Source of the DNA: Chiloscyllium plagiosum
Lineage: Eukaryota
Direction of reading: 5' to 3'
Assembly (NCBI RefSeq): GCF_004010195.1
Contig: NC_057716.1
Location: 38,277,250 to 38,341,249, forward strand
Length of the DNA: 64,000 bases
Each line of letters starts with the position of its first letter. Position 1 is the stretch's first letter. The notes below the pieces were generated by a model. That model saw only the letters and a program-made list of their open reading frames with translations, was not told the DNA's origin and did no database searches. Shown piece by piece: positions 2,570 to 53,036 of this stretch. Made by a program: the position numbers and the translations under genes.

Positions 2570-2704
2570 TTATGCTGTAAGCATAAACTGAGAACATTCT
2601 GCCAATCCAGTAATGTTTTCCAGCAAGCAATCCAGCAAGTTTTACAAGTTAACATTGCTGATAATAGCCAATGACCAGTATAATCCATTGTGTAAAAAGA
2701 AATT

Positions 2705-4560
2705 GCATAGGATGTGGGTGACACAGTCTATCCCTAATTGTCCTGAAGAAGGTTCCGGTGAGTTGTCTTTCTTTGTTGTAGTGACATCAGAATATTATTT
2801 AGGAAGGCAGTTCCAGGATTTTGACCCAGCGACAGTGAAGTAACAGTGATATATTTATAAATCAGATTGATGTGTGCCTTGGAGAGGAGCTTCCAGGTGA
2901 TGGTTTCGCTACCATTTCTGATGAAGGGCTCTTGCCCGAAATGTCGATTCTCCTGCTTCTCGGCTGCTGCCTGACCTGCTGTGTTTTTCCAGCACCACAC
3001 TCTGGAATCTGCTATCATTCGAGCAAGTAGAGATTGCAGGTTTGCTGCTTAAGGAATTTTGGTATGTTATGGTAGTGCATCTTCTAGGTAGTACACACTC
3101 CTGCCAGTGTGCATCAGCAGTGAAGAGAGTGACTGTTGAAGGTGGCAGATGGAATGCTAATCAATGCAGGCGATAAGATTATCAAGTTTCTTGGGTGTTA
3201 TTGAAATGGCATCTATCCAGGCAAGTGAAGTATATTCCAGCACATTCTTGATTTGTGTCTTGTAGATGAAGGGCAGGCAATGGAAAGACAGGAGGTGAGT
3301 TACTCATCGCAGAATTCCAAGTTTCGATCTGCACTTGTAGCAGCTGTCGTTAATTGGCTTGTCTAGTTCAGTTTCTGGTTAATGGTAATCTCAAATATTT
3401 TGTTAGAGGGGAATTCAGTGACTGCAGTACCTTTCTGTATCAAGGGACAATGATTAGATTTTCTCATATTAGACGTCATTGCCTAGCACTTATGGAGTAT
3501 GGAATTTACTTATCAAAAATGCCTGAATATTGTCCAGGTCTTGCTGCAGATAGACTCAAACTGCTTCAGCATCTGATAAATCACAAACGATGCTGAACAT
3601 TGTGTAATTGACAGTGAATATTTGCATTTCTGATCTGATCATGAAGAGAAGATTGTTGATGTAGCAGTTGAAGATGCTTGAACCTAGGGCATTAACCTAA
3701 GGAATTCTACAGAGAAGTCCTTGGGATTGAGAAGATTGACTTTTAACACCACACCCATCTTCCTTTGTGATAGCTATGATTCCGAGTGAAGATTTTACCC
3801 CTGTTTCCCAATGTCTTCAGCTTTTCTAGAGCTCTTTGATGCCACTTTTATTCAAATACTGTCCTGATGTCAAGGGTAGTCACTCTAACTCTTCTAGAGT
3901 TTGTCTTTTTTCTTCATGTTTTGACAAAGCGTGTAATGAGGTCAGGATCTGAGTAGCTTTGGTAGAACCCAAACTGAGCATCAGTGACCAGTTTATGCCT
4001 TTGCAAATGTGGCTTTTTATCATTATTAACAATCCCTCCCTTTGCTTTGCTGACGATTGTAAGTAGACTCATGTGGTAATAATTGTCTGGATTGTATTTG
4101 TCCCGTTTCTTGTGAACAGGACATATCTGAAAAATTTTACACTTAGGTAGATGCTAGTGTTGTAGCTGTATATGAACAGCTTGGTTAGTAGCAAGGCTGA
4201 TTGTGGAGCACAAGTTTTCATTATATTGTTGGAATATTACCAGGAACCATCGCCTTTTGCAGTATTCAGTGCCTTCAAATGCTTCTGTGGCAAATTGGAT
4301 AAAGTATACGATACTGGAGACTTCTCATCGAGGCCAAGATTGATCATCCAATTGGCAGCACTGCAGAGCTTAAATCTAATCAGTTTGATTGTGGGATTGC
4401 TTTTACTGTTTGGCACGCAGTTCACCCTGTCTTGTAACTTCACATGGCTGATGCTTCATTTTCAGGTATGCTTGGTACTGCCCTTGACATATCCTCCTAT
4501 ACTTTTTATTGAACAGGCTGATCCTGTAGCTTAATGGTAGAGTGGGGAATGCTGGGCCAC
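2705..4560 (-). mobile_element. Old decayed LINE (CR1/L2 group) RT and 3' region
   Basis: Reverse strand ~3600-3885 reads RVTTLDIRTVFE*KWHQRALEKL followed by a degenerate VPQGS-type region; its 3' end resembles the tail of SINE family B. Confidence 0.7.
2916..3010 (+). mobile_element. Short Penelope(Neptune-type)-derived element with hammerhead core
   Basis: CTGATGA-AGGGCTCTTGCCC-GAAA-TGTC at 2918-2945; flanked by GCTACCATT/GCTATCATT imperfect TSD; same sequence as the PLE terminus at 52910-53036. Confidence 0.75.
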
Positions 4561-5169: not shown

Positions 5170-8100
5170 CGTGGTAATCTTCGATTCTCTCACCTAACAT
5201 GATCTATCTGATTCCACTTTAAAAATATTTAATGATGCCAATTCCACAATTATCTCAGGCAGACGGTCCCAAAGTCAGCAATCCTCTGAGAGAGGAAAAG
5301 AAAATCCCCTCACTCTGTAATAAAATGACTACACCTAATTTTTAAAAATGCCTCTTAGTTCTGGACTCACCTACAAAAGTTAAAATCCTTTCCATGTCCA
5401 CCTTGTCAAGATCTTTCAGGATGTTATACATTTAAATCAAATCATCCCTTGTTCTTTTAAACTCCAGGGAAAACAAGCCCAAACTGTACAATCTTTCTTC
5501 ATAAAACAACCCAGGCATCCCGCAAATTAATCTAGTCAACTTCCTCTGATCCATCTCCAATGCATTTACACCTGCTTTAGGTAAGAAGAAAAACGCTGCA
5601 CACTGCATTTGAGATGTGGTCTCGCCCTATATAACAGAAGCCTAACATCCTTACTTTTACGTTTGACTTCTCACACAATAGAAGTAGCATTTCATTTACC
5701 TTATTAATCCTTGCTGTACCTGCACACTATCTTTTTGTGACTAATGCACTGGTACACCTCTACACTTTGTAAATCTGCAGTCTTTCACTATTTAAATCAT
5801 CTTTTAAATTTTACCTAGAAAAGTGAACAGTTTTGTTTTTTCACACATTAAACTTCATCTGCCAGATTTTTGCCCACTCCCCCAACTTATTTATATTGGT
5901 CTGCGTCTGTGTTATGTTATCTTTACCACAGGTTTTTATTTAACCTACTTTTGTGTCAAATTTAGCCACTCTGCCTTTGATCCCCTCATCGAAGACCCAG
6001 CACAGGGCCCAGTATTTAACCTTGTCACATCCTGCCAATCTGAATAAGACATATTTATTCATACTCTCTATTTTCTGCTCAGGCAGCCAATTTCCATCTG
6101 TGTTAGAACATAGTACATTACAGCGCAGCACAGGTCCTTCGGTCCTCGATGTTATGCCGCCCTGTCATACTAATCTGAAGCGCATCCCACTTACACTATT
6201 CCATGTACGTCCATTTGCCTGTCCAATGACGACTTAAATGCACTTAAACTTGGTGAATCTACGACTGATGCAGGCAAAGCATTCATTACCCTTACTACCC
6301 TTGCTACTCTCTGTTCTTATGTTACCATGAACTCCTACTTTGTGTGATGACCTATTTATGTTGAACTTTGCCAAATGTCCTCAGAAATCAGAGTACAGTA
6401 TATCAATGGGATCCCTTCTATGCATGTTAATCCTTCTAAGAATTCCAATAAATTTGTTCAATGGGATTTCTCTCTCATATACCATGCTGATTTCTCCTGA
6501 TTATCTTGACATTTCCCAAATGTCCCATTATAACCTCCTACACCATCAATTGTAACACGCTGTCCAGGACAGCTAACTGACTCATAGTTTCCTGTCCTCG
6601 TCCTCCTAACTCTCTTGAAATGAGCATTGTATATGTTACTTTCCAGTCTAATCGAACCTTTCCAGAAACTAGCAAATTTTGTAAAATTAATACCAACTCA
6701 TTTACCATCCCATTACTTCTTTTAAGAACCCAATCCCCATCAGGACCCAAGGATTTATCGATACACCACTCCATCATTTTGCTCAGCACAACTCCCCTTG
6801 TGATTCTAATTTCACCATATTCTGACCTTTCAAACCACCAGATTTACAGCTGTTACTGGAATGCATTTTGTATGTTCTCTAGTGAAGACAGAAGCAAAAC
6901 ATTTCTTTATTATATCTGCCATTCCCTCATGTATTATTAACTCCAATTCTCACCCTCTAGAGAATCAAGTCACATTACTTATCTTTTCTTTTTTTAGCAC
7001 CTTATAGAAACTCCTGTTACCAGTTTTTTAAAAAATTCTCATTATTACCCCCCATTGCTCTAATTTTAAACAAAGAAAATCATTTATTGGCCATGAACAT
7101 CACTGGCTGGCCAGCATTTATTGCCCATCCCTAGTGCCCCTTCAGAAGGTGGTGTGAGTTGTCTTCTTGAACTGCTCCAGTCCACTTGCTGACCCATAGT
7201 GCAGAATTTCACACGGAGGGAATTACAGAATTTTGACCCAGTGATGGTGAAGGAACAGGGATTTATTTGTCCTAATTTACCACTTGGTCATTCTTGACTA
7301 TTCTTTGTGTTCTGACTAGTCATCCGAATCACCTTTGCAAAAATATATCTTTTTCTTGACATTTGATGGTCCTTTTTTTTTAAGTTTTAAAGTAAGAATA
7401 TACTTGTTTTGAGTAGTCTGAAATGTCACTTTAGATATTTGTCACTGCACTCTACTGATCTATCTCCTATCTCCAGTTCACTTCAGTTTTCACACCTACA
7501 TAATTGTTCTTTAAGTTTAAATACTACTCTTGGACTCACTCCTTTCCCTTTCAAAGTGAAGGTAGAATTCAATCATATTATGATTACTGCTACCTAGAGA
7601 TACCTTTTTCTCAGAGGTCATTTATTAATCTTGTCACATTACACATATCAAATTTAGGTTGGCCTGCTCTCTGATCAGTTCTAGACCATGCTGCTTTAAT
7701 AGCATGAAAGCATTCTGTAAATCATTTATTGGTGCTGCTATTACCAACATGATTTTTCCACTTTAAAAGTAAATTAAAATCACTCCTAATTATTGACATC
7801 CTTTTATCACCAATGTTTATTGCTGTGTACTACTTCCTGTATCTTGTTAGAGTTTGGGGCCTATAGATCACTGTGACAAGTGACTTCTTTTGCCTACTAT
7901 TCCTCAGCTCTACCCAAACTGATTCCACATCCTGATTTCCTGAACCAAGATCATTTCCAACACGGCACAAATATCACTTTGATGAGTAGTGTAATCCAAA
8001 CAAGATAAGTAAACATCAAACTTGTGAGATAATTGCAAAGTCTGAGTGAAGCTCCTGGGTTCCTGGTGTCTGGGCCCCTTTATCTACCTCAGTTTCAGTC

Positions 8101-12346: not shown

Positions 12347-12647
12347 GCTGCTGTATCTTTGGACACAGATTCAAATTATTCTGATTTCAGATAATTTTTG
12401 AACAGGAACAAAAATTCATACCCTTGAAAGATATCTATATTTATTACAATGTAGTGTTTTACTTTGCTATTACCAAAAGCTGGAGTTAAAAAGTGCAATG
12501 ATAAAGGATACAATAAAAGTTGAAAAGAGCAAAACACTTCTGCTAATTTCTTAGTGATATTATCCAGTGAATACCTGAGTCATGTCAACTAAGAAAGTCT
12601 CAAATTTGATCCCTATGATCCCTATTTGATCCCTGATCCCTGATTCC

Positions 12648-12850
12648 AGGGGTCATAGTTTTATAGAAAAGGGGTAAACTTTTTCATACTGATTTGAGGA
12701 GAAAAGTCTTCCCCCAGAAAATGGTGAGCCTGTAGAATTCACAATCGTAGAAAGTGGTTGAGGCCAAGATATTATTTGTTTTAAGAAGGAATGAAGGGAT
12801 ATGGGAGAGTGAGCAGGATTAGGGTGTAGAGCTCAATGATCGGCTGATTT
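12648..12850 (+). mobile_element. CR1 3'-end fragment
   Basis: AGGGGTCATAGT (RGHS) followed by the characteristic CR1 ORF2 C-terminal region. Confidence 0.6.
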
Positions 12851-12965
12851 CAGCAAGAAAACATTACAAGAGCCTTACTACCTCAGATTTAAGGAGAGTA
12901 AGTTGATCAGATTGCTTTGTTTCTGATTGTTATGCAGTAACCCCTCACTGAAAGTGTGCCCATCT

Positions 12966-13094
12966 GGAAGACAGTGAGGTCTGCAGATGCTGGAGATCAG
13001 AGTTGCGAGTGTGCTACTGAAAACGCCCAACAGGTCAGGCAGCATCCGAGGAGCAGGAGAATCAATGTTTCGGGCAGGAGCCCTTCATCAGGAA
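12966..13094 (-). mobile_element. Short PLE-derived element with hammerhead core
   Basis: Reverse strand starts TTCCTGATGAAGGGCTCCTGCCCGAAAC; TSD TGTGCCCATCT (12955-12965) / TGTGCACATCT (13095-13105). Confidence 0.8.
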
Positions 13095-13784
13095 TGTGCA
13101 CATCTATACCTGGTTGAAGATCTCACATGCTATCAAGCCTTATACAGGCATAAATAATAGCACTCAGAGAAGATATTAGACAGTGATTAATGTTACATTG
13201 CATTCAACAATTACTTTAAATCTTTGAAAAAGGAAGAAATGGAAAGAAAATGGAGCAAATGATAGACCAGGTGGCAAGATGAAGTAAAGCAAAAGGTAAT
13301 GACTTATTAGTACAGGATTTAGATTTTAAGTGCTATAAATTGTAGAATAAAGACAACATCAATAGCTCAATAAAAATAGCCTGGCCATTGACCTTCAATG
13401 CTCGAGGTAAACCTCCTGATTACACTGTCCCATCATTTTAAATGGGCATCAGGGTAGTTCTGGGTGATTTACAATTCTCTCAGGTGACTTATAAAGTATA
13501 GCAGTTAAAAAGAGCATTACTGTGTGTAAAGGATGGCAACATTCCATAATCATCTACTCATGCTGTGCAAGCAAACAGGGCAAGGCAGTCAAAACATCAA
13601 GCCCTGGATAATCCCACATAAACAGGATTTCAGTATGGGAGTATCTGCCCATGTTCTTTTTTGTGATTCTCAGTTTTTTAAATTCTTTTTAAAATTTCAC
13701 TGAGATATTTTATGGCAATTTAGAAGACAAAAGAAAGGTACTTTGAAAGATTAGAAGCAAAGGAAAATTGCAGCAATTACACGA

Positions 13785-14470
13785 AAACATAGAAACACAG
13801 AAGATGGGAGCAAGAGTAGGCCATTTGACTCTGAGTCTGCTCCACTATTCAATATGATCATGGCTGATCATTGAGCTCTACACCCTAATCCTGCTCACTC
13901 TCCTATATCTCTTGATTCCTTCTTAAAACAAATAATATCTTAACCTCAACCACTTTCTACGATTGTGAATTCCACAGGCTCAGCATTTTCAGGGTGAAGA
14001 CGTTTCTCCTCATCTCAGTCTGAAAAAGTTTACCCCTTATCCTTAAACTATGACCCCTGGTTCTAGAATCCCCACCGTCAGGAATAACCTTCCTGCATTT
14101 AACCTATCTAATCCTGTCAGAATTTTATAAGTTTCTATGAGATCCCCCCACCCCCATTCTTCAAAAGTCCAGTGAATATAATCCTAACATGCAATCTCTC
14201 CCCTCACAACAGTCCTGCCATCCCAGGAATCAATCTGGTGAGCCTTCAATGCACTCCCTCTGTAGCAAGAACATCCTTCCTCAGATAAAGCAACCAAAAC
14301 TGTACACGATATTCCAAGTGTGGCCTCACCAATGTCCTGTATAAATTCAATAAGACATCCCATGATCTTGTACTCCAATCCTCTCGCCATGAAAGCCAAC
14401 ATAGAGTTTGCCTTCTTCACCACCTGCTGCACCTGCATGTTTACTTTCAGCAACTGGTACACAAGGTCTT
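13785..14470 (-). mobile_element. CR1 LINE 3' fragment
   Basis: ORF 14184-14501 KKANSMLAFMARGLEYK; CATAGAAA-type tail near 13790. Confidence 0.85.
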
Positions 14471-16232: not shown

Positions 16233-16546
16233 GGGTGGCACAGTGGCTAGCACTGCTGCCTCAGAGTGCCAGAGATCCGGGTTCAATTCCCACCTCAGGT
16301 GACTGACTGTGTGGAGTTTGCACATTCTCCCCATGTCTGCATGGGTTTCCTCCGGGTGCTCCGGTTTCCTCCAACATTCTAAAAGATGTGCAGGTCATGT
16401 GAATTGACTATTCTAAATTGCCAGTAATGTTAGGTGAAGGGGTAAATGTAGGGGAATGGGTCTGGGTGGGTTGCGCTTCGGTGGTTCACTGTGGACTTGT
16501 TGGGCCGAAGGGCCTGGTTCCATGCTGTAAGTAATCTAATCTAATC
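16233..16546 (+). mobile_element. HE1-type V-SINE
   Basis: A/B boxes, V-domain, (TCTAA)n tail. Confidence 0.9.
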
Positions 16547-17796
16547 TGCCAGAATGGGAATGGAAGCCATTATTCCAAATCACGTTCTGGCTTTGGGCCT
16601 CGGAGATAATAGCTGAAACTTAAAGGAATTGAAGAATGAGCACCACCAGGAGTAGACTCAACATGGAAAACCTCACCCAGGCTGGAGACAAAAAGGATTA
16701 CTAACTAGCAATTTTGTTGGTGACAATGCAAGGCTATTCTTAGTTGACAGAATGATTCATCTGTTTAATTCCAATAACAAATGTGATATCTCCATGCTAA
16801 AAGGTCATACAAACCCAAAGTGGTCCATATCCGAATTCTTAGAGGGATGAAGACATTCAAAAGTGAGCCCGTGGATGATCAGAGTTGTATGCATGCTACA
16901 TTGAATCAATCAATAAGTGTCTACTCTACATTGCCAGTTTTGAGTAAAATGTTGAATGCCATTTGTGGCAATTGCAATTATATGTATGAGAGAATCAGCC
17001 CCCATTGTAGCTCATTTCTAACCTAATGGGGCTATGGATACAATTACCATTAAAAGTCCATAAAATATTGAAAGTTACAACAATACATATTGTAGAAATT
17101 AATATCAGTAAATTGGAATGGATTGGTAATCAAAGTAAATTCTGTGCACAACATACAAAGTTAATATAGGGTTGCAATAAATCAAGCAAATAGATTACTA
17201 ATAAGACAAACTGGTAATCTAAGTGGCAGCTCAATATGCTTAAAATGTAAAGAGCTCTGGTAAAAGTTTGCTTTAGTATTATTTCCATTTTCAATACTGT
17301 GATATAATGGACACATTCAGACCATTGACGTGAAGCCAGAACATTAAAGAATTGAGTTAAGGGAAAAGGCAGAAACAAGGCAATTTTAACCATGCAGGAG
17401 ATAAATAAGAGGAGGCCTTATCTATTAGATAATGCAGAAGTTAAGTTAGAGCATCAACTTGAGACAAGTCAAGATAATACAACAATGGTCATAACATGAA
17501 AGCCAATGTTAAGAAGTTCTTCATACCATATCGGGATTAGAACAGTGAAGACAAAAACATTGGATTTCTTCCAGTGTGATTTGTATGCATGAGCTGAGCT
17601 CCAGCCCTCTCCTTGATTCACCTTGTGACTGTGTAAGTTAAGTGCTTTTCTTTCCAGTAAGTGCCTTTGCCCTGCAGATAACCACCTGTTGGGAACCTTC
17701 TGGTGTGGTTTCTTAGAAGGCCAGCTAGAAGTGCTGTGAATAGCTAAAATGGCAATTTACTATTTTTCCAGAGCTTCCACTCATGTTGGATTGAAC

Positions 17797-17952: not shown

Positions 17953-18466
17953 GTATTCAATTCCAATCTTTATCGGGTTGGGGCCTTAGAATGTCAAGGA
18001 GAGGCATCACAGAAATTGAATTAACTGATCAGGAACACACATTCCAGGTACCTCTCCAAATATAAAACTGCCCCCTTCTAACTGGGTAAACATTTCAAAT
18101 TTGTCAAGTCCTTTGATAATCTGTTACGTATTAGATAGATTTGTAAATCTAGTTCTTTGAATATGTACACATACATTTGACATTTTAAAATAAATAAAAG
18201 AGTATACAACTCATCTCGAGGGGACAACAATAAGAATATTAATAATATTTGAAGTCACTACATTTAAAGCATGATGAGACAGCAATATGACACCACTCTT
18301 ACTTTGACTGATGAGAATATGTTAATCATTCATTTAAACGTGTTAGTTTTGCAGTTCATTATTTATTGACATACATGATTCTAACTAGTACAAATTGTAT
18401 TTCGGGAATTATTCAAAACAGTATAAGCTGTCCTATGACCACTGCTCTTGCTTCTCATAAACTTAT

Positions 18467-18780
18467 GGGCGGCACGGTGGCACAGTGGTTAGCACTGCTG
18501 CCTCACAGCGCCTGAGACCCGGGTTCAATTCCCGCCTCAGGCGACTGACTGTGTGGAGTTTGCACGTTCTCCCCGTGTCTGCGTGGGTTTCCTCCGGGTG
18601 CTCCGGTTTCCTCCCACAGTCCAAAAGATGTGCAGGGTCAGGTGAATTGGCCATGCTAAATTGCCCGTAGTGTTAGGTAAGGGGTAAATGTAGGGGTATG
18701 GGTGGGTTTCGCTTCGGCGGGTCGGTGTGGACTTGTTGGGCCGAAGGGCCTGTTTCCACACTGTAATGTAATCTAATCTA
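18467..18780 (+). mobile_element. HE1-type V-SINE, young full-length copy
   Basis: Intact A/B boxes, CpG-rich V-domain, TGTAATGTAATCTAATCTA tail. Confidence 0.95.
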
Positions 18781-24300: not shown

Positions 24301-25340
24301 AATACAATACTGCAACACAGGCTATTCATTTAACCATTATTTTCATTTTTTTTATAGTAACTGTAGATCACAAGTGCATCAATCCTAAATGAATAGGGAA
24401 AAGCTAGCATTTACTCTTTGTTCTTGAGCTGTTAAGTATTAGAGCAACAGTACTATGACTCAGAATTATTGCAAAATTATATTCTATCCCATTAAATGCA
24501 TAAGCCATACCTTACACTTTTCAAACAGAATAATGCATGAAAAAAAGTTGCAGTATTTAAAAGCTATTATTGTTTCAAACATATCACAATATTCATTTGT
24601 AAAATGTTCACAATAATTTTCAATATTACTTTTCAAGGTCTTATCTTTAGGACTTGTAGGTGGATTAGAAACAGTGAGCATGATTTATAAAATTAAACAG
24701 GCCCTTCCCTACTCATTACAAAGGGTACCCCAAAATTAAACAAGGAATGGAACTGAGTGCTAGTCAAAATATTTGGGCTGAACATTTTTTCCATATTTGT
24801 GTAATTTCCGCAGTTGGTCATGGGGCTTTGTTTTAATATGGCAATCCTTACAACCAGTTATCTAGAAATGCCTTGTTATTTAGTCAGATTCTTACCAATT
24901 TGCCTTGGCATTTCTTCAGGTGATATTTTAACATGCATTTAGTGAAATTACACCTTGCACTAATATGAGGAACAGAGAAAAGCAAATGAATGTATGGATC
25001 AGTCACCTACAAATATTGACAGCTGCAACTACTGGGTGCAAACCTTGAAGGATGTGATCCAAAAAGAAACTCATCTAGCAAATGTGCAACTAACCAGTTA
25101 GACGTGCTTTCATAAACAAGAAAACATTTTAAATTGTTACATCAATAGTAAGTTAGTTAGATGGAAGCACTTGTGCCATAGTTGTAGCATTTTCCAGCAA
25201 ATTAATGACTAAACTGAAATTCTATTGTTTGCAAAATTTTAAAAAATTGCCTATTATAATATTTAAAATGTATAGGGATCAATTTGTGTACTCAGATATA
25301 AGGCATGAACTATATGCAAAGTGTAGGGTGAATAATTTGT

Positions 25341-25659
25341 GGGCGGCACGGTGGCACAGTGGTTAGCACTGCTGCCTCACAGCGCCAGAGACCCGGGTTC
25401 AATTCCCGACTCAGGCGACTAACTGTGTGGAGTTTGCACGTTCTCCCCGTGTCTGCGTGGGTTTCCTCCGGGTGCTCCGGTTTCCTCCCACAATCCAAAA
25501 AAAAATGTGCGGGTCAGGTGAATTGGCCATGCTAAATTGCCCGTAGTGTTAGGTTAAAGGGGTAAATGTAGGGGTATGGGTGGGTTGCGCTTCGGCAGGT
25601 CGGTGTGGACTTGTTGGGCCGAAGGGCCTGTTTCCACACTGTAAGTAATCTAATCTAAT
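25341..25659 (+). mobile_element. HE1-type V-SINE, young full-length copy
   Basis: A/B boxes, V-domain, (TCTAA)n tail. Confidence 0.95.
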
Positions 25660-25901
25660 TATACCATTCTGTAAATGTACAAAGAAATAGTTAAATTCTG
25701 CAGTCCGGTTGATAGAACTGGAGCTTACAGATTATGTGGTACAAACTGGCACAACTGTGTTGTCAGATTGAATATAGTCAAATCTCAAAATCTACCAGAA
25801 TACTAGGAAGTAAGACATTATCATACTAGTTGATCTCATTGGCAAATGAGTGCAGTGACTGCAATGAGGTCAGCCAGCTGGACCTCATACACTAATCTGG
25901 T

Positions 25902-25934
25902 CCAATCAGGAAGTCCTGGCTGGCAGATATAAAC
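25902..25934 (+). promoter_or_regulatory. LTR U3 CCAAT box and TATA box (the insertion target)
   Basis: CCAAT 25902-25906 and TATAAAC 25928-25934 within the solo LTR. Confidence 0.55.
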
Positions 25935-25957
25935 TAAAAAAAAATAAACAGGGCTAT

Positions 25958-26361
25958 GACTGCCTGCCCCTCTTCCGCGGTTACGTTAGAGCCCGGGTGT
26001 CTCTGGAGAAGGAGCATGGGGTGTCCACCAACACCCTGGCGTTGTTCAGGGAGAGGTGGGAACCACAGGGAGTGGGAATGCATTATTTCTCCCTCCAACT
26101 CTATTTTGATTTAATCCCTGTCCTCCCCTTCACTGTTTGATCACACAGCATTGCCCTTTGATGTGAAAGTGCTTGTCACTGGCCACTCGGGTGTTTCCTA
26201 TCTTCCTGGTGGTGGAAATTGAATAAAGATTTGTGCACCTTGTGTCTCTCACTGTGTCTCATACCTACACACACACACACACACACACCAAGGGTGCTGG
26301 GGAAAAAATAAGCACTACCGCAGTCAGGCGGTAGTGTGGGGGTTAAAAGAGAAAAGAAACA
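25958..26361 (+). mobile_element. Tx1-like non-LTR retrotransposon 3' end, copy 1
   Basis: ORF2 C-terminus DCLPLFRGYVRARVSLEKEH...FRERW, 3'UTR with AATAAA, (CA)n, terminal hairpin and A-rich tail; preceded by ATAAACAGGGCTAT. Confidence 0.8.
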
Positions 26362-26375
26362 ATAAACAGGAGAAT

Positions 26376-26511
26376 CCCTTCACTGTTTGATCACACAGCA
26401 TTGCCCTTTTTCGTGAAGGGCACTGCTTGTCACTGGCCACTCGGGTGTTTTCCTAGTGAGAGTTGGATCGGTGTGAATATAAAAGAAAAAAAGAAAAAAA
26501 AACTAAAAAAA
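26376..26511 (+). mobile_element. Short Tx1-like 3'UTR fragment plus LTR piece and A-tail (copy 1b)
   Basis: Preceded by variant target ATAAACAGGAGAAT; UTR sequence joins LTR-like GAGAGTTGGATCGGTGT and then an A-rich tail. Confidence 0.65.
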
Positions 26512-26525
26512 ATAAACAGGGCTGT

Positions 26526-27033
26526 GACTGCCTGCCCCTCTTCCGCGGTTACGTTAGAGCCCGGGTGTCTCTGGAGAAGGAGCATGCAGTGTCCACCAAC
26601 ACCCTGGCGTTGTTCAGGGAGAGGTGGGAACCACAGGGAGTGGGAATGCATTACTTCCCCCTCCAACTCTATTTTGATTTAATCCCTGTCCTCCCCTTCA
26701 CTGTTTGATCACACTGCATTGCCTTTTGTGAAGAGCACTGCTTGTTACTGGCCACTTGGGTATTTCTTTTCTTCCTGGTGGTGGAAATTTGAATAAAGAT
26801 TTGTGCCCCTTGTGTCTTTCACTGTGTCTCACACCTGCACACACACAACATGGGTGCTGGGTAAAAAAATAACCCCCACTGCAGTTAGGCGGTAGTGTGG
26901 GGGTTAAAAACAAAAAAAAAATTAAAATATAAGCAGGAATGTCAGAGATTCTGTTCACTCTGAGAGCTGGCTCTGAGGAAGCTGGACCATTGTGTGAAGG
27001 ACTCTCCTCTTGATTAAAAAAAATTTTTAAAAA
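26526..27033 (+). mobile_element. Tx1-like 3' end, copy 2, followed by 87 bp of LTR sequence and a second A-tail
   Basis: ORF 26463-26708 contains DCLPLFRGYVRARVSLEKEHAVSTNTLALFRERWEPQG; target ATAAACAGGGCTGT at 26512-26525; LTR piece at 26929-27015. Confidence 0.8.
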
Positions 27034-27047
27034 ATAAACAGGGCTGT

Positions 27048-27347
27048 GACTGCCTGCCCCTCTTCCACAGTTACGTTAGAGCCTGAGTGTCTCTGGAGAA
27101 GGAGCACACGGTGTCCACCAACACCCTGGAGTTGTTCAGGGAGAGGTGGGCACCGCAGGGAGTGGAATGCATTATTTCCCCCTCCAACTCTATTTTGATT
27201 TAATCCCTGCCCTCCCCTTCACTGTTTGATCACGTAGCATCGCCCTTTGATGTGAAGGGCACTGCTTGTCACTGGCCACTCGGATGTTTCCATTCTTCCT
27301 GGTGGTGGAAATTTGAATAAAGATTCGTGTACCTTGTGAAAAAATAA
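27048..27347 (+). mobile_element. Tx1-like 3' end, copy 3 (ends at the proximal poly(A) site)
   Basis: Target at 27034-27047; AATAAA 27316-27321, A-tail begins 27339. Confidence 0.8.
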
Positions 27348-27361
27348 ATAAACAGGGCTGT

Positions 27362-27755
27362 GCCCCTCTTCCGCGGTTACGTTAGAGCCCAGATGTCTCT
27401 GGAGAGGGAGCGTACGGTGTCCACCAACACCTTTGAGCTGTTCAGGGAGAGGTGGGTGCCACAGGGAGTGGAGTATATTATTTCCCCATCCAACTCTATT
27501 TTGATTTAACCCCTGCCCTCCCCTTCACTGTTTGATCACACAGCATTGCCCTTTGATGTGAAAGGCATTGCCTCTCACTGACCACTGGGTGTTTTCTTTC
27601 CCTCCTGGTGGTGGAAATTGAATAAAGATTTGTGCACCTTGTGTCTTTCACTGTATCTTACACCTGCTCACACACAAACATGGGTGCGGGGGGAAAATCA
27701 GCACTACCGCAGTTAAGCAGTAGTGTGGGAGTAAAAGAAAAAAAAATTAAAAACA
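27362..27755 (+). mobile_element. Tx1-like 3' end, copy 4
   Basis: Target at 27348-27361; reads PLFRGYVRAQMSLERERTVSTNTFELFRERWVPQGVEYIISPSNSILI*; hairpin and A-tail. Confidence 0.8.
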
Positions 27756-27769
27756 AAAAACAGGGCTGT

Positions 27770-28029
27770 GCCCCTCTTCCATGGTTATGTTAGAGCCCGG
27801 GTGTCGCTGGAGAGGGAGCATGCGGTGTCCACCAACACCCTTGAGCTGTTCAGAGAGACGTGGGCGCCGCAGGGAGTGGAGTGCATTATTTCCCCCTCCA
27901 ATTCTATTTCGATTTAATCCCTGTCCTCCCCTTCACTGTTTGATCACACAGCATTGCCCTTTGATGTGAAGGTCACTACTTGTCACTGGCCACTTGGGTG
28001 TTTCTTTTCTTCCTGAGAAGAAAAAATAA
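27770..28029 (+). mobile_element. Tx1-like 3' end, copy 5
   Basis: Preceded by AAAAACAGGGCTGT; shortened UTR and A-rich tail, then the host LTR resumes ATAAACAGGGCTGTCAGG at 28030. Confidence 0.8.
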
Positions 28030-28231
28030 ATAAACAGGGCTGTCAGGGGTTCTGTTCACTCTAGAAGCCAGCTCTGAGCTTGCTGGGTCAGTGTCAAGCA
28101 CTATGCATGTATAAATAAAGGGTGACTTGGTGACAGAATACTAGTCTTCGTCGAGCTATTTCAATGAGCAAGTTATGGCATTTGAGATGGAGTCATGAGT
28201 TCCTGCTTACAGGACTTGTTGATCCCAGAAC

Positions 28232-29932
28232 TTGATGTTTTGGAAAAGTAAGCTTCAAGGCAAGGGTGTAATTGATATGTGGAGCTTGTTCAAGGAGCAA
28301 CTATTGAGTGTCCTTGATAAGTATGTACCCGTCAGGCAGGGAGGAAAGGGTCGTGTGAGGGAACCGTGGTTTAATAAGGAATTGGAATCCCATGTTAAAT
28401 GGAAGAGGGCGGCCTATATAAAGATGAGGCGTGAATGTTCAATTGGGGCGATTGAGAGTTATAAGGTAGCCAGGAAAGACCTGAAGAGAGAGCTAAGAGC
28501 AGCAAGGAGGGGACATGAAAGGACCTTAGTNNNNNNNNNNNNNNNNNNNNNNNNNNNNNNNNNNNNNNNNNNNNNNNNNNNNNNNNNNNNNNNNNNNNNN
28601 NNNNNNNNNNNNNNNNNNNNNNNNNNNNNNNNNNNNNNNNNNNNNNNNNNNNNNNNNNNNNNNNNNNNNNNNNNNNNNNNNNNNNNNNNNNNNNNNNNNN
28701 NNNNNNNNNNNNNNNNNNNNNNNNNNNNNNNNNNNNNNNNNNNNNNNNNNNNNNNNNNNNNNNNNNNNNNNNNNNNNNNNNNNNNNNNNNNNNNNNNNNN
28801 NNNNNNNNNNNNNNNNNNNNNNNNNNNNNNNNNNNNNNNNNNNNNNNNNNNNNNNNNNNNNNNNNNNNNNNNNNNNNNNNNNNNNNNNNNNNNNNNNNNN
28901 NNNNNNNNNNNNNNNNNNNNNNNNNNNNNNNNNNNNNNNNNNNNNNNNNNNNNNNNNNNNNNNNNNNNNNNNNNNNNNNNNNNNNNNNNNNNNNNNNNNN
29001 NNNNNNNNNNNNNNNNNNNNNNNNNNNNNNNNNNNNNNNNNNNNNNNNNNNNNNNNNNNNNNNNNNNNNNNNNNNNNNNNNNNNNNNNNNNNNNNNNNNN
29101 NNNNNNNNNNNNNNNNNNNNNNNNNNNNNNNNNNNNNNNNNNNNNNNNNNNNNNNNNNNNNNNNNNNNNNNNNNNNNNNNNNNNNNNNNNNNNNNNNNNN
29201 NNNNNNNNNNNNNNNNNNNNNNNNNNNNNNNNNNNNNNNNNNNNNNNNNNNNNNNNNNNNNNNNNNNNNNNNNNNNNNNNNNNNNNNNNNNNNNNNNNNN
29301 NNNNNNNNNNNNNNNNNNNNNNNNNNNNNNNNNNNNNNNNNNNNNNNNNNNNNNNNNNNNNNNNNNNNNNNNNNNNNNNNNNNNNNNNNNNNNNNNNNNN
29401 NNNNNNNNNNNNNNNNNNNNNNNNNNNNNNNNNNNNNNNNNNNNNNNNNNNNNNNNNNNNNNNNNNNNNNNNNNNNNNNNNNNNNNNNNNNNNNNNNNNN
29501 NNNNNNNNNNNNNNNAAGATCGTATGAGGAAAGGCTGATGCACTTGGGGTTGTTTTCATTGGAGAAAAGAAGGTTTAGGGGTGACTTGATAGAGGTGTAC
29601 AAGATGATTAGGGGTTTAGATAGGGTCGACAGTGAGAATCTTTTTCCACGTATGGAGTCAGCTATTACAAGGGGGCATAGCTTTAAATTAAGGGGGGGTA
29701 GGTATAGGACAGATGTTAGGGGTAGATTCTTTACTCAGCGAGTCGTGAGTTCATGGAATGCCCTGCCAGTAGCAGTGGTGGACTCTCCTTCATTATGGGC
29801 ATTTAAACGTGCATTGGATTGGCATATGGAGGATAATGGGCTAGTGTAGGTTAGGTGGGCTTGGATCGGCCCAACATCGAGGGCCAAAGGGCCTGTACTG
29901 CGCTGTATTCTTCTATGTTCTATGTTCTATGT
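28232..29932 (+). mobile_element. Young CR1 LINE (ORF2 part and 3' end) spanning an assembly gap
   Basis: WSLFKEQLLSVLDKYVPVR before the gap; LGLFSLEKRRFRGDLIEVYK...RGHSFKL after it; (CTATGTT)n tail. Confidence 0.9.
28531..29515. other. Assembly gap (985 N)
   Basis: Run of N. Confidence 1.
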
Positions 29933-38443: not shown

Positions 38444-38890
38444 CTGATGAAGAGTCATTAGGTTAGATTAGATTACATTAGAGTGTGGAAACAGGCCCTT
38501 CAGCCCAACAAGTCCACACCGACCCGCCGAAGCGTAACCCACCCATACCCCTACATTTACCCCTTACCTAACACTACGGGCAATTTAGCATGGCCAATTC
38601 ACCTGACCTGCACATCTTTGGACTGTGGGAGGAAACCGGAGCACCCTGAGGAAACCCACGCGGACACGGGGAGAACATGCAAACTCCACACAGTCAGTCG
38701 TCCGAGGCGGGAATTGAACCCGGGTCTCTGGTGCTGTGAGGCAGCAGTGCTAACCACTGTGCCACTGTGCTGCCCATCTAGACTTCAAAATGTTAGCTTG
38801 CTCTCTGTCCATGGATGCTGCCTGACTAGCGGTGATCTCCAGCATTTGTTGTTTTCTGCACAGATTCCAGCATCTGTCGTAATTTACTCC
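38444..38890 (+). mobile_element. PLE-derived hammerhead-bearing element interrupted by an HE1 SINE
   Basis: CTGATGAAGAGTCAT at 38445, resuming CATCTAGACTTCAAAATGTTAGC...GATGCTGCCTGAC...GATTCCAGCATCTG after 38775. Confidence 0.6.
38462..38775 (-). mobile_element. HE1-type V-SINE, young full-length copy
   Basis: Reverse complement of 18467-18780. Confidence 0.95.
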
Positions 38891-46395: not shown

Positions 46396-46408
46396 AAATC
46401 AATTAGAG

Positions 46409-46635
46409 CTAAAAATGTGTTGCTGGAAAAGCGCAGCAGGTCAGGCAGCATCCAAGGAGCAGGAGAATCGACGTTTCGGGCAAGAGCCCTTCCTCAGGAA
46501 TCAGGATTCCTGAGGAAGGGCTCATGCCCGGAACGTCGATTCTCCTGCTCCTTGGATGCTGTGTGACCAGCTGCGCTTTTCCAGCAACACATTTTCAGCT
46601 CTGATCGCCAGCATCTGCAGTCCTCACTTTCTCCT
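46409..46635. mobile_element. Fold-back (head-to-head) short PLE-derived element
   Basis: ~97-bp inverted arms around a CAGG loop (46502-46505); 15-bp TSD AGAAATCAATTAGAG at 46394-46408 and 46636-46650. Confidence 0.9.
46470..46497 (-). ncRNA. Minimal hammerhead ribozyme core (host-gene sense strand)
   Basis: Reverse strand CTGAGGA-A-GGGC-TCTT-GCCC-GAAA-CGTC. Confidence 0.6.
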
Positions 46636-46787: not shown

Positions 46788-49780
46788 ACATAGAACATGG
46801 AACAAAACAGCACAGTACAAGCCCTTTAACCCTCGATGCTGCACCGACCTGTGAAACCAATCTGAAGCCCATCTAACCTACACTATTCCATTTTCATTCA
46901 TATGTTTATCCAATGATCATTTAAATGCCCTTGAAGTTGGTGAGTCCAATACTGTTGCAGGCAGGGCTTTCCATGCCCCTACTACTCTCTGAGTAAAGAA
47001 ACTACCTTTGACACCTGTTCTATATCTATCCCCCCGCAATTTAAAGCTATGTCCCCTCATGCTAGCCATCACCATCCAAGGAATAAGGCTCTCACTGTTG
47101 ACCCTATCTAACCCTCTGATCATCTTGTATGTCTCTATTAAGTCACCTCTCAACCTTTTTGTCTCTAATGAAAACAGCCTCAAGTCCCTCAGCCTTTCCT
47201 CATAAGACCTTCCCTCCATACCAGGTAACATACTGGTAAATCTCCACTGCAACCTTTCCAATGCTTACACATCTTCCTATAATGCGGCAACCACAACTGT
47301 ACGCAATACACCAAGTGTGGCCGCACCAGAGTTTTGCACAGCTGCAACACGATCTCATGGCTCCAAAACTCAATACCTCTACCAATAAAAGCTGACACAC
47401 CATATGCCTTCTTAACAACCCTATAAACTTAGGTAGCAACTTTCAGGGATCGATGTACATGTACACCAATATCTCTCTGCTCATCCACACTACCAAGAAT
47501 CTTACCATTAGCCCAGTACTCTGTATTCCTGTTACTCATTCCAAAGTGAATCACCTCACACTTTTCCGCATTAAATGCCATTTGCCACCCAGCACTGCAG
47601 CTTATCTATGTCCCTCTGTAACCTGCAACATCCTTCAGCACTGTCCACATCTCCACCAACCTTAGTGTCATCCGCAAATTTACTAATCCATCCTTCTATT
47701 CCCTCATCCAGGTCATTTATAAAAATGACAAACAGCAGTGGCCCCAAAACAGACTCTTGTGGTACACCACTAGTAACTGAACTCCAGGATGAACATTTCT
47801 CATCAACCACCACATTTTGTCTTCTTTCAGCAAGCCAATTTCTGACCCAAACTGCTAAATCACCCTCAATCCCATGCCTCCTTATTTTGTGCAATAGGCT
47901 ACTCTGGGGAACCTTATCAAATGCTTTACTGAAGTTCATACAGAGCACATCAACCGCTTTACCCTCATCAACCTGTTTGGTCACCATCTCAAGGACTCAA
48001 TAAGGTTTGTGAGGCACGACCTACCCTTCACAAAACTGTGTTGACCATCTCGAATCAAATTATTTCTTTCTAGTTGATTATAAATCCTATCTCTTATAAT
48101 CCTTTCCAACACTTCACCCACAACTGAAGTAAGGCTCAGAGGTCTATAATTTCCAAGGTTGTCTCTACTCCCCTTCTTGAACAAGGGGACAACGTTTGCT
48201 ATCTTCCAGTCTTCTGGCACTCTTCCAGTAGACAATGACGACATAAAGATCCAAGCCAAAGATTGTGCAGTCTCCTCCCTGACTTCCCAGAGGATCCTCG
48301 GATAAATCCCATTTGGCCAAGGGGACTTATCTTTTTTTACACTTTCCAGAAATACTACCAACTCCTCCTTGTGAACCTCAATCCCATCTAGTCTAGTAAC
48401 CTGTATCTCAGTATTCTCCTCAACAACATTGTATTTTTCCAGTGTGAATACTGTCAAAAAATATTCATTTAGCGTCTCTCTTATCTCCTTGGTCTCCACT
48501 CACAACTTCCCACTACTATCCTTTACTGGCCCTAATCTTACTTTAGTCATTCTTTTATTCCTGACATACTTATAGAAAGCTTTAGAGTTTTTCTTGATCT
48601 TATCTGCCAACAACTTCTCCTGGCTCTTCTTAGCTCTCGCTTTAGGTCTTTCCTGGCTAGCTTGTAACTCTCAAGTGCTCTAACTGAGCCTTGATATCTC
48701 ATCCTAACATAAGGATGAGATATCAAGAAGCCTTCTTCTTCCTCTTGACAAGAGATTCAACTTCGTTATTAAACCACGGTTCCCTCGTTTGACTTCCTCC
48801 CTACCTGACAGGTATATACTTATCAAGGACATATAGTAGCAGTTCCTTGAATAAGCTCCATATTTCAATTGTGCCCATCCCCTGTAGTTTCCTTCCCCTT
48901 CCTATGCATCCTAAATCTTGCCTACTCGCATTACAATTGCCTTCCCCCAGCTATAAATCTTGCCCTGCCATATATACCTATCCCTTTCCATCGTTAAACC
49001 GAATTGTGATCACTATCACCAAAGTGCTCACCTACCTCCAAATCTTACACCTTCCTTACCAAGTACCAAATCCAGGCCTCACCTCTTGTTGGCCTATCGA
49101 CACACTATGTCAGAAGTCCTCCTGGACACATTGGACAAAACTGACCCATCTAAAGTACTTAAAATATAACGTTTCCAGTCAATATTTGGAAATTTAAAGT
49201 ACTCCATAACAACTACCCTGTCACTTTCACTCCTATCCAAAATCATCTTTGCAATCCTTTCCTCTACATTTCTGGAACTTTTCGGAGGCCTTTAGAAAAC
49301 TCCCAACAAGGTGACCTCTCCTTTCTTGCTTCTAACCTCAGCCCATACTACCTCAGTAGATGAATCCTCATCAAGCTTTCTGCCACTGAAGTACTGTTCT
49401 TGTCTAACAATGCCTCACCTACCCCTCTTTTATTACCTTCCCTGTTCTTACCCCGGAACCTGCAACAACCATTCCTGCCCCTGCTCGATCAATGTATCTG
49501 AAATAGCCATAATTTTGAAGTCCCAGGTACCAAACCATGCTGCAAGTTCACCCACCTTATTCCTGATGCAGCTGGCATTGAAGTAGACACACTTGAAAGC
49601 ACCTTCCTGCCTGCCAGTACTCTCTTGCAACCTTGAAACCTTATTTATGACCTCACTACTCTCAACCTCCTGTGGACTGGAGCTACAATTTAGTTTCCCA
49701 TTCCCCTGCTGAATTAGTTTAAACCCTCCCGAACACCATTAGCAAATGACCCCATCAGGTTATTGGTACCCTCTCACTCC
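46788..49780 (-). mobile_element. Near-complete CR1 ORF2 (APE endonuclease and RT), frameshifted
   Basis: CVYFNASCIRNK (EN start), [46 protein letters not shown]; CATAGAA tail. Confidence 0.95.
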
Positions 49781-49845: not shown

Positions 49846-50030
49846 AAAAGTGAGTACTGCAGATGCTGGAGATCAGAGTCGAGAGTGTGGTGCTGGAAAA
49901 GTACAGCAGGTCAGGCAGCATCTGAGGCGGCATCTGACATTCCTGATGAAGGGCTTATGCCCAAAATATCGATTCTCCTGCTCCTCAGATGCTGCCTGAC
50001 CTGCTGTGCTTTTCCAGCACCATACTCTCG
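49846..50030. mobile_element. Fold-back short PLE-derived element
   Basis: Inverted arms; TSD ATATTGTGTT(G/T)CTTGTC at 49829-49845 and 50031-50047. Confidence 0.85.
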
Positions 50031-51441
50031 ATATTGTGTTTCTTGTCTGTCAATTATTTTTCCAAGAACTTTTTACAAAGTTTATTTCTGAATGTTCAAA
50101 AGCAACATAAAACTGAAGAATCTTAATGCTCGTCATCATGTCTCCCTTTTCAACATCATTAAGCATGTTAACTTTGGATTTTGCAGAAGTACATATTTTC
50201 AAAGTGAGTAAGCTTAAATAAATAACATGAAGTTTTATTTTTTAAATATCTGACTCTGGTGAGTTAATTTTTTAAAAAGGCACAATCTCTTTAAGCTTAT
50301 AGCCTCAGCCAAAATACCACTCACCAATTCATAATCCTTCATTTAGTCTCTATGTGCCTTCTGGTAACATTTCCCTTAAAAGTAAACATTATTTATTCAG
50401 TAATTTAACATAAAAGGTAACTTATCATCTTTCACTTTCTGTTCAACAAATTCCATAAGCTCTGGAGGCAAATTGTGTCCCAGTGTTACATATTGCTCTT
50501 TTCAGAATTTCTTGCACAACAAACAGAACTTGCTGAGTTAATTGCTGTAGTTCTCAAATCTTTTACTTTTCTGATAAAAGTGAAATTTCAATAACAGTCT
50601 GTCACTATGAGAAGCTATTCTTGATTGTGTGTGAATAAATCAACTCTCACAATATGCCACTATCTGGGTGGTACTTCAATAGCTATCATTTTCTGCTGTT
50701 TGCTTAAGTACTTCTGGCATACTTTGCATGTAAATATCATTGTTTTGAGGTTTTTGCAGATTCCTGTCCACTACACAATGAATCTGCCTCTGAACTCTCA
50801 TTCTCCACTTCCATATGGCCATCATGTCGCTTCAAGAGAAGTTGTCCCTGCACTAGTTTGAGTATGGTAAGTCTGAATCCAGCCATCAGATCATCATCTT
50901 CCAATAAGATGTCACCTCTAATTGATCAAAGCAACCATATTAATGTTTTTTTTTTCGTAATTTATCAGGCCACCCCTGGATCGCTTACTGAAAAAACACT
51001 TCTAAATACTGATCTCCTCCCTGTTTTAATGTTGCATGTTCACTAGGTGATGAACCTTTACACTTAGATCTTTTACACATCTTTCTCATGTGATGACAAT
51101 TGAAACAAGGCATCTTCTAGCACAATTTCTCTTCCTTGTATTTCAGAGTGAAATCATAGCTCCAAGCCTCTACAATCTCGCAAGGCTATTTCTCTTGGGA
51201 ATCTGCTGATCACTCATTGTTATGAAGTTTCTCACTGGGATAAACGTATGGAATTTCTCTTGTCATACACAACATGGGAAACCTTTTTTTATACTAGCAT
51301 ACTTGGTCTTAGCTGATTTCGAGCTATTGACGTGAACGACTGGCTTTCCATCTTGTACCCAGTCCTCTACGATTTAAACAGAGTCAGATTTGGGAGGAGA
51401 AAAATAAATCCAAAGAGTAGCTGGCCTTCTTTTAGCAGGAA

Positions 51442-53036
51442 ATGTGTTGCTGGAAAAGCGCAGCAGGTCAGGCAGCATCCAGGGAACAGGAGAATCGACG
51501 TTTTGGGCATAAGCCCTTCTTCAGGAATGAGGAAGGTTTGTCCAGCAGGCTAAGATAAAAGGTAAGGAGGAGGGACTTGGGGTAGGGGCGTCGGAAATGT
51601 GATAGGTGGAAAGAGGGCAAGGTGAGGGTGATAGGTCAGACTGGGGTGGGGGCGGAGAGGTCGGGAAGAAGATTGCAGGTTAGGAAGGCAGTGCTGAATT
51701 TGATGGATTTGACTGAGACAGGCTGGGGGGAGGGGAAATGAGGAAACTGGTGAAACCCGAGTTCATCCCTTGTGGTTGGAGGGTCCCTAGCCGGAAGATG
51801 AGGCGTTCTTCCTCCAACCATCGTTTCACTGTGGTCTGACGATGGAGGAGTCCAAAGACCTGCATATCCTTGGCGGAGTGGGAGGGGGAATTGAAATGTT
51901 GAGCCACAGGGTGGTTGGGTTGGTACAGGAGTGGTACAGATAAGATGAATAGCAGTTCTCTTTTATATAGGGTGAGTTTTCAAGACTACAGGGGATATTT
52001 TTAAAGGTGAGAGGAGGAAGAATTTTAAAAAAAGACATGAGGATTATTTTTTAGAAACAAAGAAAGAGGTTTGTGTGTGGAATGAATTTCCAGAGAAAGT
52101 GGTGGATATGGGTATTGTTACAAAGTTTAAAAGACAATTAGATAAGTACATGAATAAGAAATGTTTGGAGGGATATGAGTCAAGCGCAGGTTTAGTTTGC
52201 GATTATGGTCAACATGGACTGGTTGGACCATTGGGTCTGTTTCTATGCTGTATGACTCAATTCAAGAACTAAATCAATGTGGCTCGAGGTAAGGAGCAAT
52301 TACATCACTCAGTATAGTCTATAGGCTCCCAGCAAGTGGGAAGAATGCAGAAGAACAAATCTGCAGGGAAATTAGAAGAATGTCCGTAATATAGAGAAAT
52401 AACAATGGGGAACTTTAATTACCGAAATATAAACCAGGATACTTGAATTGTAAAGGGCAGAGGGGGGCAAGCATTCCTTAATTTCATGCAGAAGAATTTC
52501 CTACACCAATACACGTCCAGTCCAACAAAGAACATACGCTTGGACTCATCATAATAATAGAAGCAGGAGTAGGCCTTTCGGCCCATTGAGCCTGCTCTGA
52601 CATTCATTAAGATCTTGGCTGATCTATCAATCGTCTCAGCTCCTCCTACCTGCATTATCCCCATAACCCTTAATTTCCCTACCATGCAAAAACTCACCCA
52701 ACTGTGTCTTGAATATATTTAATGAAGCTGCTGTTACTGCGTCCTTGGGCAGAGAATTCCTGCAATCTTCTTCCCGCCCTCTCCGCCCCCACCCCAGTCT
52801 GACCTTTCACCCTCACCTTGACCTCTTTCCACCTATCACATTTCCGACGCCCCTCCCCCAAGTCCTTCCTCCCTACCTTTTATCTTAGCCTGCTGGACAA
52901 ACTTTCCTCATTCCTGAAGAAGGGCTTATGCCCGAAACGTCGATTCTCCTGTTCCCTGGATGCTGCCTGACCTGCTGCGCTTTTCCAGCAACACATTTCC
53001 AGCTCTGATCTCCAGCATCTGCAGACCTCACTTTCT
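51442..53036. mobile_element. Neptune-type PLE with inverted arms enclosing ~830 bp of unrelated repeat DNA
   Basis: ORF 51680-51907(-) HFNSPSHS..DMQVFGLL..RWLEEERLIFRLGTLQPQGMN (GIY-YIG C-terminus); inverted arm at 52759-53000; TSD CCTTCTTTTAGCAGGAA at 51425-51441 and 53037-53053. Confidence 0.85.
52914..52941 (+). ncRNA. Minimal hammerhead ribozyme core in the PLE terminus
   Basis: CTGAAGA-A-GGGC-TTAT-GCCC-GAAA-CGTC with intact core. Confidence 0.65.

Follow-up and report, generated by a model that had tools for sequence, protein, structure and literature searches.

The locus described here raises the question of why several copies of one long interspersed nuclear element (LINE) lie stacked in the core promoter of a single long terminal repeat (LTR), and of how such a stack is built. 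The window, meaning the whole stretch of 64,000 nucleotides of Chiloscyllium plagiosum that was analysed (contig NC_057716.1, positions 38,277,250 to 38,341,249, forward strand), contains a solo Gypsy-type LTR which is split in its TATA-like motif by an array of LINE pieces. On the evidence below we think it rather probable that a LINE resembling Tx1L of Xenopus laevis inserts preferentially, and in one orientation, in the TATA-like motif of this LTR, that the arrays grow leftward by copying the front end of the resident copy, and that full-length copies use the LTR promoter.

Insertion preference of the LINE

The LINE side was sampled from the matches to a LINE 31-mer listed by position on contigs C1–C3 (30 search loci and 60 fetched stretches, all but one of the listed C3 matches; contig and locus numbers, C and L, are our own). 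Four loci were dropped as overlapping or duplicated, which left 86, and 11 of these had a left end that could not be scored, which left 75. Three sample loci were assigned through the nearest match, their anchor having none. At 47 of the 75 scorable loci the LINE starts directly after the left half of the LTR. Target duplications were detected at 48 of the 75, mostly 12–16 bp long and starting at approximately GAT/ATAAAC, where the slash marks the presumed cut. The association between LTR and LINE is far beyond chance, the background being 5 LTR matches in 172,724 bp of flank away from the LINE. The main text of Kojima 2015 (PMC4494074) regards a Tx1 family as target-specific when more than 20% of its flanks lie in one repeat type, a share which the 47 of 75 exceed. 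Of 30 LTR copies taken in order of position, 7 are occupied, in every case at the same site. Among 29 further LTR copies found by their right half, the LINE is present in four, a tail alone in one and an orphan transduction in one. In this last copy (L032, oriented 1285–1634; C45:4686559–4689692, minus strand) the LTR holds the right part of another LTR, about 20 bp of flank and an A-rich tail. As the insert lies at the same site between target duplications and carries no LINE sequence, it is clearly an orphan 3' transduction.

The other 28 scorable loci have no LTR left half. A few of them still have the right half, so the 63% given by the 47 loci is likely a floor. Many of the 28 show clean duplications of 12–17 bp at unrelated A-rich sites; among the non-LTR sites a T precedes the cut in 14 of 19, and the duplication is rich in A or purines. 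Many non-LTR copies also carry transduced pieces of the LTR right half, which implies that their donors sat in LTRs. The LINE thus strongly prefers, without strict specificity, the TATA-like motif of a Gypsy LTR. The first-pass annotation of the window had proposed a sequence-specific family whose target is an LTR core promoter; the repeated use of one LTR site agrees with this, but strictness has to be given up, as about a third of the copies lie elsewhere.

The LINE and its host LTR

The 3' end of the LINE gave 4136 first-look candidates in the 3.56-Gb genome, and one 31-mer matches exactly 687 times. Longer copies yield a natural element of about 7.2 kb (L107), with frames resembling open reading frame 1 (ORF1), an apurinic/apyrimidinic-type endonuclease (APE) and a reverse transcriptase (RT). 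An 883-amino-acid stretch of ORF2 has Tx1L of X. laevis (P14381) as its best named protein match, with 53% identity over 91% coverage, and APE followed by RT within ORF2 was found with the Pfam families Exo_endo_phos (E 4e-10, L118) and RVT_1 (E 2e-36, L111), zf-RVT scoring below cut-off. L115 and L118 have long frames and a CxxCxxxxHxxxxxC stretch upstream of the APE; two ORF1 pieces, neither of which contains the CCHC-like knuckle, gave no match in Pfam. In an RT tree of 30 rows (midpoint root, no outgroup, no Keno or Dewa row identified) the LINE falls within a 10-row clade including Tx1L, sturgeon and turtle proteins (support 100/100), with a stingray protein as its sister. Teleost pol-like proteins and the one alligator protein of the tree fall outside this clade. 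Judged by homology, the LINE therefore belongs to the Tx1 clade (L1 group) and to the Tx1L lineage, and the Tx1 identity annotated earlier is confirmed by the ORF2 match together with the shared RT clade. Copies at different loci diverge by 8–9% at non-CpG sites, and a linked set of alleles defines a younger subfamily, with a private divergence of 2.0% versus 3.7%. A 9-bp hairpin closes the 3' untranslated region (UTR) directly before the tail (in the window at 26313–26336, 26874–26897 and 27702–27725), and a second hairpin-like inverted repeat lies about 150 nt upstream, inside the piece that recurs at the 5' end of younger-subfamily copies. Both are possible recognition signals for the RT.

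Intact LTR copies are about 235 bp long and contain CCAAT motifs, a TATA-like motif, an initiator-like TCACTCT, the A of which follows the first T in the TATA-like motif by 29 nt, and AATAAA. Five two-LTR loci show TG..CA pairs with a primer-binding-like site and a polypurine tract, and solo copies carry 5-bp duplications. The internal sequence of L068 gave a match to RVT_1; 13 of its 15 homologues have RT and RNase H families, and 11 of the 15 also have rve, of which a weak match was found close to the 3' LTR side of L066. The host is accordingly a Ty3/Gypsy element with RT, RNase H and then integrase, the order being pieced together across broken copies. The five LTR pairs diverge by 15–25%, compared with 8–9% for the LINE copies, so most of the LTRs that the LINE entered were old by then, and the disabling of the LTR which the first-pass annotation regarded as a consequence of the insertions loses its weight. 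A second LTR subfamily, which has another sequence downstream of the duplicated target, is struck at the same position (right flanks of L128, L141, L143, L180, L199, L205, L206, L229 and L230); the target part shared by the two subfamilies is therefore limited to about 20–25 bp.

The array in the window

The array consists of the following parts, in which the target word is the LTR's own sequence at the insertion point, called local when it is that of this LTR and foreign when it is not.

25846–25850 and 28164–28168, + strand: left and right copies of the 5-bp target duplication of the LTR, ATGAG, read from the sequence
25851–28163, + strand: solo Gypsy-type LTR, TG..CA, split in its TATA-like motif, likewise read from the sequence
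25851–25934, + strand: LTR left half, with TG start, CCAAT at 25902 and TATA-like GATATAAAC at 25926
25935–25943, + strand: A-rich tail without LINE body, repeated before unit 3 at about 26499–26511
25944–26361, + strand: unit 1, local target word 25944–25957, Tx1 ORF2 C-terminus and 3' UTR 25958–26344, A-rich tail
26362–26498, + strand: unit 2, foreign target word 26362–26375, 3'-UTR piece 26376–26455, A-rich tail
26512–26928, + strand: unit 3, local target word, Tx1 3' end 26526–26905, A-rich tail
26929–27033, + strand: foreign target word and LTR-derived LINE 5' head, then A-rich tail
27034–27347, + strand: unit 4, local target word, Tx1 3' end 27048–27338, A-rich tail
27348–27755, + strand: unit 5, local target word, Tx1 3' end 27361–27732, A-rich tail
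27756–28029, + strand: unit 6, local target word, 3'-truncated Tx1 piece 27769–28015, A-rich tail
28030–28163, + strand: LTR right half, with the last target word 28030–28043, initiator-like TTCACTCT at 28055, AATAAA at 28114 and CA end

The solo LTR with its ATGAG duplications, the split in GATATAAAC, the five LINE 3' ends and the fragment at 26376 all agree with what the first-pass annotation had described. Compared with intact copies, the left half has a deletion of about 24 bp, and the bottom-strand nick may be placed after 25928. Target words stand at 25944, 26512, 27034, 27348, 27756 and 28030, so that a duplication of 13–14 bp precedes each of the five LINE 3' ends. That this word belongs to the 3' end of the LINE is ruled out by the flanks: it equals, as the annotation had supposed, the LTR's own sequence there, and it varies by locus. 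A similar 9-mer occurs inside ORF2, about 35 nt upstream of the junction in the window, and is not the junction itself. Unit 1 is the least diverged of the window units (private changes at 6 of 311 sites), the LINE part of unit 4 stops about 20 nt past the AATAAA at 27316, and unit 6 is likely the oldest end of the array. The array holds only truncated, dead LINE copies.

Two points of the earlier description had to be corrected. The copies had been said to differ in their 5' start, and the five copies show just two starts, one common to units 1, 3 and 4 and one to units 5 and 6. The fragment at 26376 had been taken for a plain LINE 3' end; behind a foreign target word it joins a piece of 3' UTR to the beginning of a LINE 5' head (about 26457–26475), and unit 2 is the 5' end of the younger full-length subfamily. 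A second LTR-like piece, at 26929–27015, had been overlooked and is also a LINE 5' head behind a foreign target word, departing from the LTR at about 27008 and continuing as LINE 5' UTR to 27015. The target words of these two pieces (26362–26498 and 26929–27033) differ from the local one at 3–4 positions, and the pieces likely arrived with units 1 and 3, respectively, through 3' transduction. The bodiless tail at 25935–25943 would be a tail-only insertion.

Array growth and junction sharing

Array growth was studied in 127 loci, namely the sample, 20 extended loci, 20 long-copy loci and the window, 85 of which have at least two units. The 5' start is common, within 2 nt, to 197 of 906 within-array pairs, compared with 13 ± 3.6 and a maximum of 28 in 2000 shuffles, and at least one pair with a shared start occurs in 55 of the 85 arrays. 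Among 106 successive units behind a local target word, 77 have the same start, 16 an earlier and 13 a later one. What the units share beyond the start was determined for 71 pairs from 42 loci, with an overlap of at least 150 nt and after removal of near-identical pairs. Shared rare alleles fall off with distance from the junction, from 20/85 in the first 30 nt through 5/76, 13/160, 12/216 and 5/132 to 3/186 beyond 300 nt, while between loci at most 1% are shared. Duplication of whole units would spread the shared private mutations evenly, which is not what is seen. The window has the same pattern: units 1 and 3 show no difference in the first 103 non-CpG sites and 8 in 58 near the 3' end, have private changes in common over about 180 nt, and are each preceded by the same tail-only insert. 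The 3' parts of array units, for their part, bring in foreign target words and flanks. The first unit has more of the younger-subfamily character in 41 arrays and the last unit in 6, with 21 ties, and private changes amount to 2.1% in first versus 4.3% in last units (45 versus 16 arrays). Array growth is thus polar and mosaic, with the leftmost unit youngest, and the independent insertions and truncations assumed in the annotation do not agree with units that share junctions and are mosaics.

That the array in the window is an assembly artefact is rejected on the assembled sequence, its units differing by 5–10% and being mosaics, and the pattern recurring in dozens of loci. Near-identical array blocks do flank N gaps at L266 and L130/L131 (C1:54118063–54125342), L189 and L210, which suggests some assembly duplication around these arrays; L131 was left out of the counts for this reason. 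Two further arrays have unusual contents. L150 (oriented 1566–1941; C1:147847377–147850407, minus strand) contains a transduced piece that begins in an LTR right half, crosses the primer-binding-like site and extends into the interior of the Gypsy element, which indicates that the LINE also moves parts of its host element. In L002 (oriented about 2680–3015; C12:25084405–25087785) a LINE 3' end, a tail and an LTR-like piece lie inverted within the array, which could be due to twin priming or to a local inversion.

The LTR-derived 5' head

Full-length copies open with about 55 nt of LTR sequence, reaching from just past the TATA motif to 6–7 nt before the AATAAA of the LTR, or else with a stretch of 3' UTR joined to this head. 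A pattern spanning the junction between head and LINE occurs 210 times. In the first 30 of these 210 matches, from about 28 loci, all 30 heads have LTR-derived sequence. A target word precedes 14 of the heads, and in these the LTR sequence goes on, in about 12 cases through the initiator-like motif; the other 16 stand behind a piece of 3' UTR that ends at L107 position 7060–7069 (one at 7039). None adjoins unique DNA. The two odd pieces in the window are exactly these two types of head, and 22 units end at 7060–7069, i.e. at the boundary between 3' UTR and head. Upstream of a full-length body in L113 lie a head fragment, a tail and a target variant, all private to locus L269, implying that the RNA began upstream of the element (a 5' transduction; one case, in which the two bodies differ in subfamily). 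A search of three loci against Rfam gave nothing near cut-off for a ribozyme at the head, and single folds of three heads, made without shuffles, gave nothing decisive. The LTR-derived heads and the 5' transduction of L113 fit with full-length copies that borrow and rebuild the LTR promoter, which we regard as likely from sequence features. The heads thus lend real, if indirect, support to the promoter borrowing that the first-pass annotation had thought possible.

Proposed mechanism and alternative explanations

The preferred reading starts from what is observed at 47 of the 75 loci, an insertion at GAT/ATAAAC with a 12–16 bp duplication. The APE endonuclease would nick this site by its sequence, with the A-rich tail priming reverse transcription. 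In an occupied LTR, where the leftmost unit is the youngest, 5' junctions are common and shared private changes cluster at the junction, the target nicked would be the leftmost one, which is still in LTR context. Cutting or resolution of the second strand may then take place inside the resident copy, between a few and about 200 nt from its start, after which the strand would anneal to the matching place in the new complementary DNA (cDNA). The target word and the resident front end would thereby be duplicated, the remainder being derived from RNA made elsewhere; put differently, annealing to the resident front would lengthen the target duplication by a few to about 200 nt. The LTR-derived head would arise because the RNA starts at the start site of the LTR, and its homology would let a full-length cDNA join seamlessly and restore the spacing from TATA to start. 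We tentatively go one step further, to a proposal that is possible and less than even in our estimation: the LINE may have no promoter of its own and live on those of dead LTRs, cutting the TATA box and carrying an LTR leader that ends just before the poly(A) signal, whereby integration would restore the promoter. Resident truncated copies would force the same truncation point on newcomers, so the 3'-UTR piece at the 5' end of the younger subfamily could let full-length copies enter occupied sites.

Several results weigh against this reading. With 28 of 75 loci lacking the LTR left half, the preference is loose. Most heads now lie behind later units and not directly behind the LTR left half. 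In a single-cell poly(A) run, 2057 reads fall nearly all on the 3' UTR with a strand bias, hardly cover the head and show no start site; since the same pattern can come from oligo-dT primed at A-rich tails in genomic DNA, the run is no test of activity or start site. A second RNA run gave no reads. Units longer than their right neighbour were expected to be rarer than shorter ones, and were not (16 versus 13), and private divergence in successive same-junction pairs is no different (41 versus 37). The 906 within-array pairs are not independent of each other, and in one unit of each array the sampling pattern itself determines two of the six subfamily sites. Finally, non-CpG sites show no difference in 15 of 114 successive same-junction pairs, in five cases over 90–181 nt, which indicates that plain DNA or assembly duplication also occurs.

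These identical pairs, among them units 2 and 3 of L225, which are identical including their tails, are also an argument for an explanation in which the targeting is real and slippage or unequal exchange of DNA accounts for most of the array growth, the target word and the unit being duplicated together and their 3' parts being replaced later through gene conversion or target-primed overwrite. The 12 nt ahead of shared junctions, which are 94% identical, point the same way. We nevertheless consider it unlikely, since shared mutations drop steeply from the junction where this explanation would have them flat, tails and 3' ends differ between units, and the 3' parts hold foreign target words, LTR halves and even, in L150, Gypsy internal sequence from other loci; nor does duplication alone predict that the youngest unit stands on the left. 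The units could instead be independent 5'-truncated insertions into a regenerated target, their shared starts reflecting short matches between target word and LINE, and the head being a functionless old capture in a LINE with its own promoter. R1 arrays do form by plain insertion at the 5' duplication (as described in PMC2718515), and the local target word matches the LINE over about 7 nt at the start common to units 1, 3 and 4. Such short matches, however, cannot yield private mutations shared downstream of the junction (about 180 nt for units 1 and 3), nor do they give the extra junction bases in common at L143, L179 and L198. This contradicts the explanation for the junctions and makes it quite improbable as a whole, though the LINE may still have a promoter of its own.

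It is more improbable still that the site is set by open chromatin or by tethering to the TATA-binding machinery, combined with loose L1-like nicking at T/AAAA, or that the LINE hitch-hiked in a spreading Gypsy LTR. Non-LTR sites do share little beyond a T followed by an A- or purine-rich stretch, and several LTR subfamilies with different downstream sequence are struck; against it, non-LTR sites resemble the target word at L022/L061, L146, L192 and L214, and non-LTR sites have been struck again at L147, L171, L192 and L214. Hitch-hiking is excluded by truncation points that are specific to each locus and by LTR pairs older than the LINE copies.

Other repeats in the window

An abundant, ordinary tRNA-type short interspersed nuclear element (SINE) of about 320 bp lies at 25332–25659, as well as at 2246–2559, 16234–16547, 18460–18780 and 38457–38776; we take it to resemble the shark SINE HE1. 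A LINE-like coding fragment at 28170–28530 begins right after the LTR, has 72% identity to 48617–48894 and runs into an N gap of 985 bases (28531–29515). Pairs of palindromic or inverted repeats, up to 96% identical and belonging to one short repeat family, are found at 46402–46605, 49879–50031, 12646–14060 and 51434–53004, and this family is likely similar to miniature inverted-repeat transposable elements.

Significance and comparison with known systems

The 5'-end joining of APE-type LINEs is still poorly resolved, and in the shark arrays hundreds of successive events at a single site are naturally preserved, together with their order of age. From these arrays it seems that the joining point of a new copy is set by the DNA immediately beyond the cut, an idea that bears on full-length, site-directed insertions using LINE proteins. 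Promoter rebuilding, if true, explains the choice of a TATA box by a LINE.

The telomeric arrays of HeT-A and TART grow at one end, and their new copies carry 3'-UTR sequence of the neighbour at the 5' end, which the younger subfamily of the shark LINE may parallel. They are endonuclease-independent additions to chromosome ends and have their promoter in the 3' UTR, whereas the candidate promoter of the shark LINE is the host LTR. Tx1L is like the shark LINE in ORF2 sequence, RT clade and the possession of APE and RT. Both target transposons: Tx1L inserts into the piggyBac-type Tx1D (Kojima 2015, PMC4494074), while the target here is the promoter motif of a Gypsy LTR. The main text of the same paper also lists transposon-targeting Tx1 families, describes SINEU-3 copies inserted in tandem around a duplication, and puts forward the idea that the target next to an element drives its transcription.

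The first-pass annotation knew of no family specific for the TATA box of an LTR. The targeting of an LTR as such is not new, as Kojima 2015 (PMC4494074) names two crocodilian Tx1 families, Tx1-8_Crp and Tx1-4_AMi, that are found preferentially in LTR retrotransposons. They resemble the shark LINE in this choice of target, but cluster with Keno (PMC4494074) where the shark LINE sits with Tx1L, and the main text gives neither a site within the LTR nor any copying of junctions. A literature search without most subscription journals, Repbase or Dfam found no papers on a Tx1 element inserting at a TATA site, on heads derived from an LTR or on the copying of junctions in arrays.

R1 of Drosophila, as described in PMC2718515, is APE-type and makes a 14-bp duplication. 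Its tandem arrays grow because new copies insert at the 5' duplication; off-target copies bring target flank with them, and precise junctions result from the annealing of 5' RNA sequence that derives from the target. The shark LINE is like R1 in being APE-type, in its arrays growing at the 5' duplication, in off-target copies with target flank and in target-derived 5' sequence. It differs in that R1 targets 28S ribosomal DNA and has a 5' tag from upstream of the cut, whereas the shark head is sequence from downstream of it, and in that the identical junctions of R1 arrays are ascribed to amplification of one event (PMC2718515), whereas the shark arrays consist of mosaic units. LTR targeting by Tx1 elements and 5'-growing arrays, as in R1, are thus already published, and the shark case varies a known kind of targeting.

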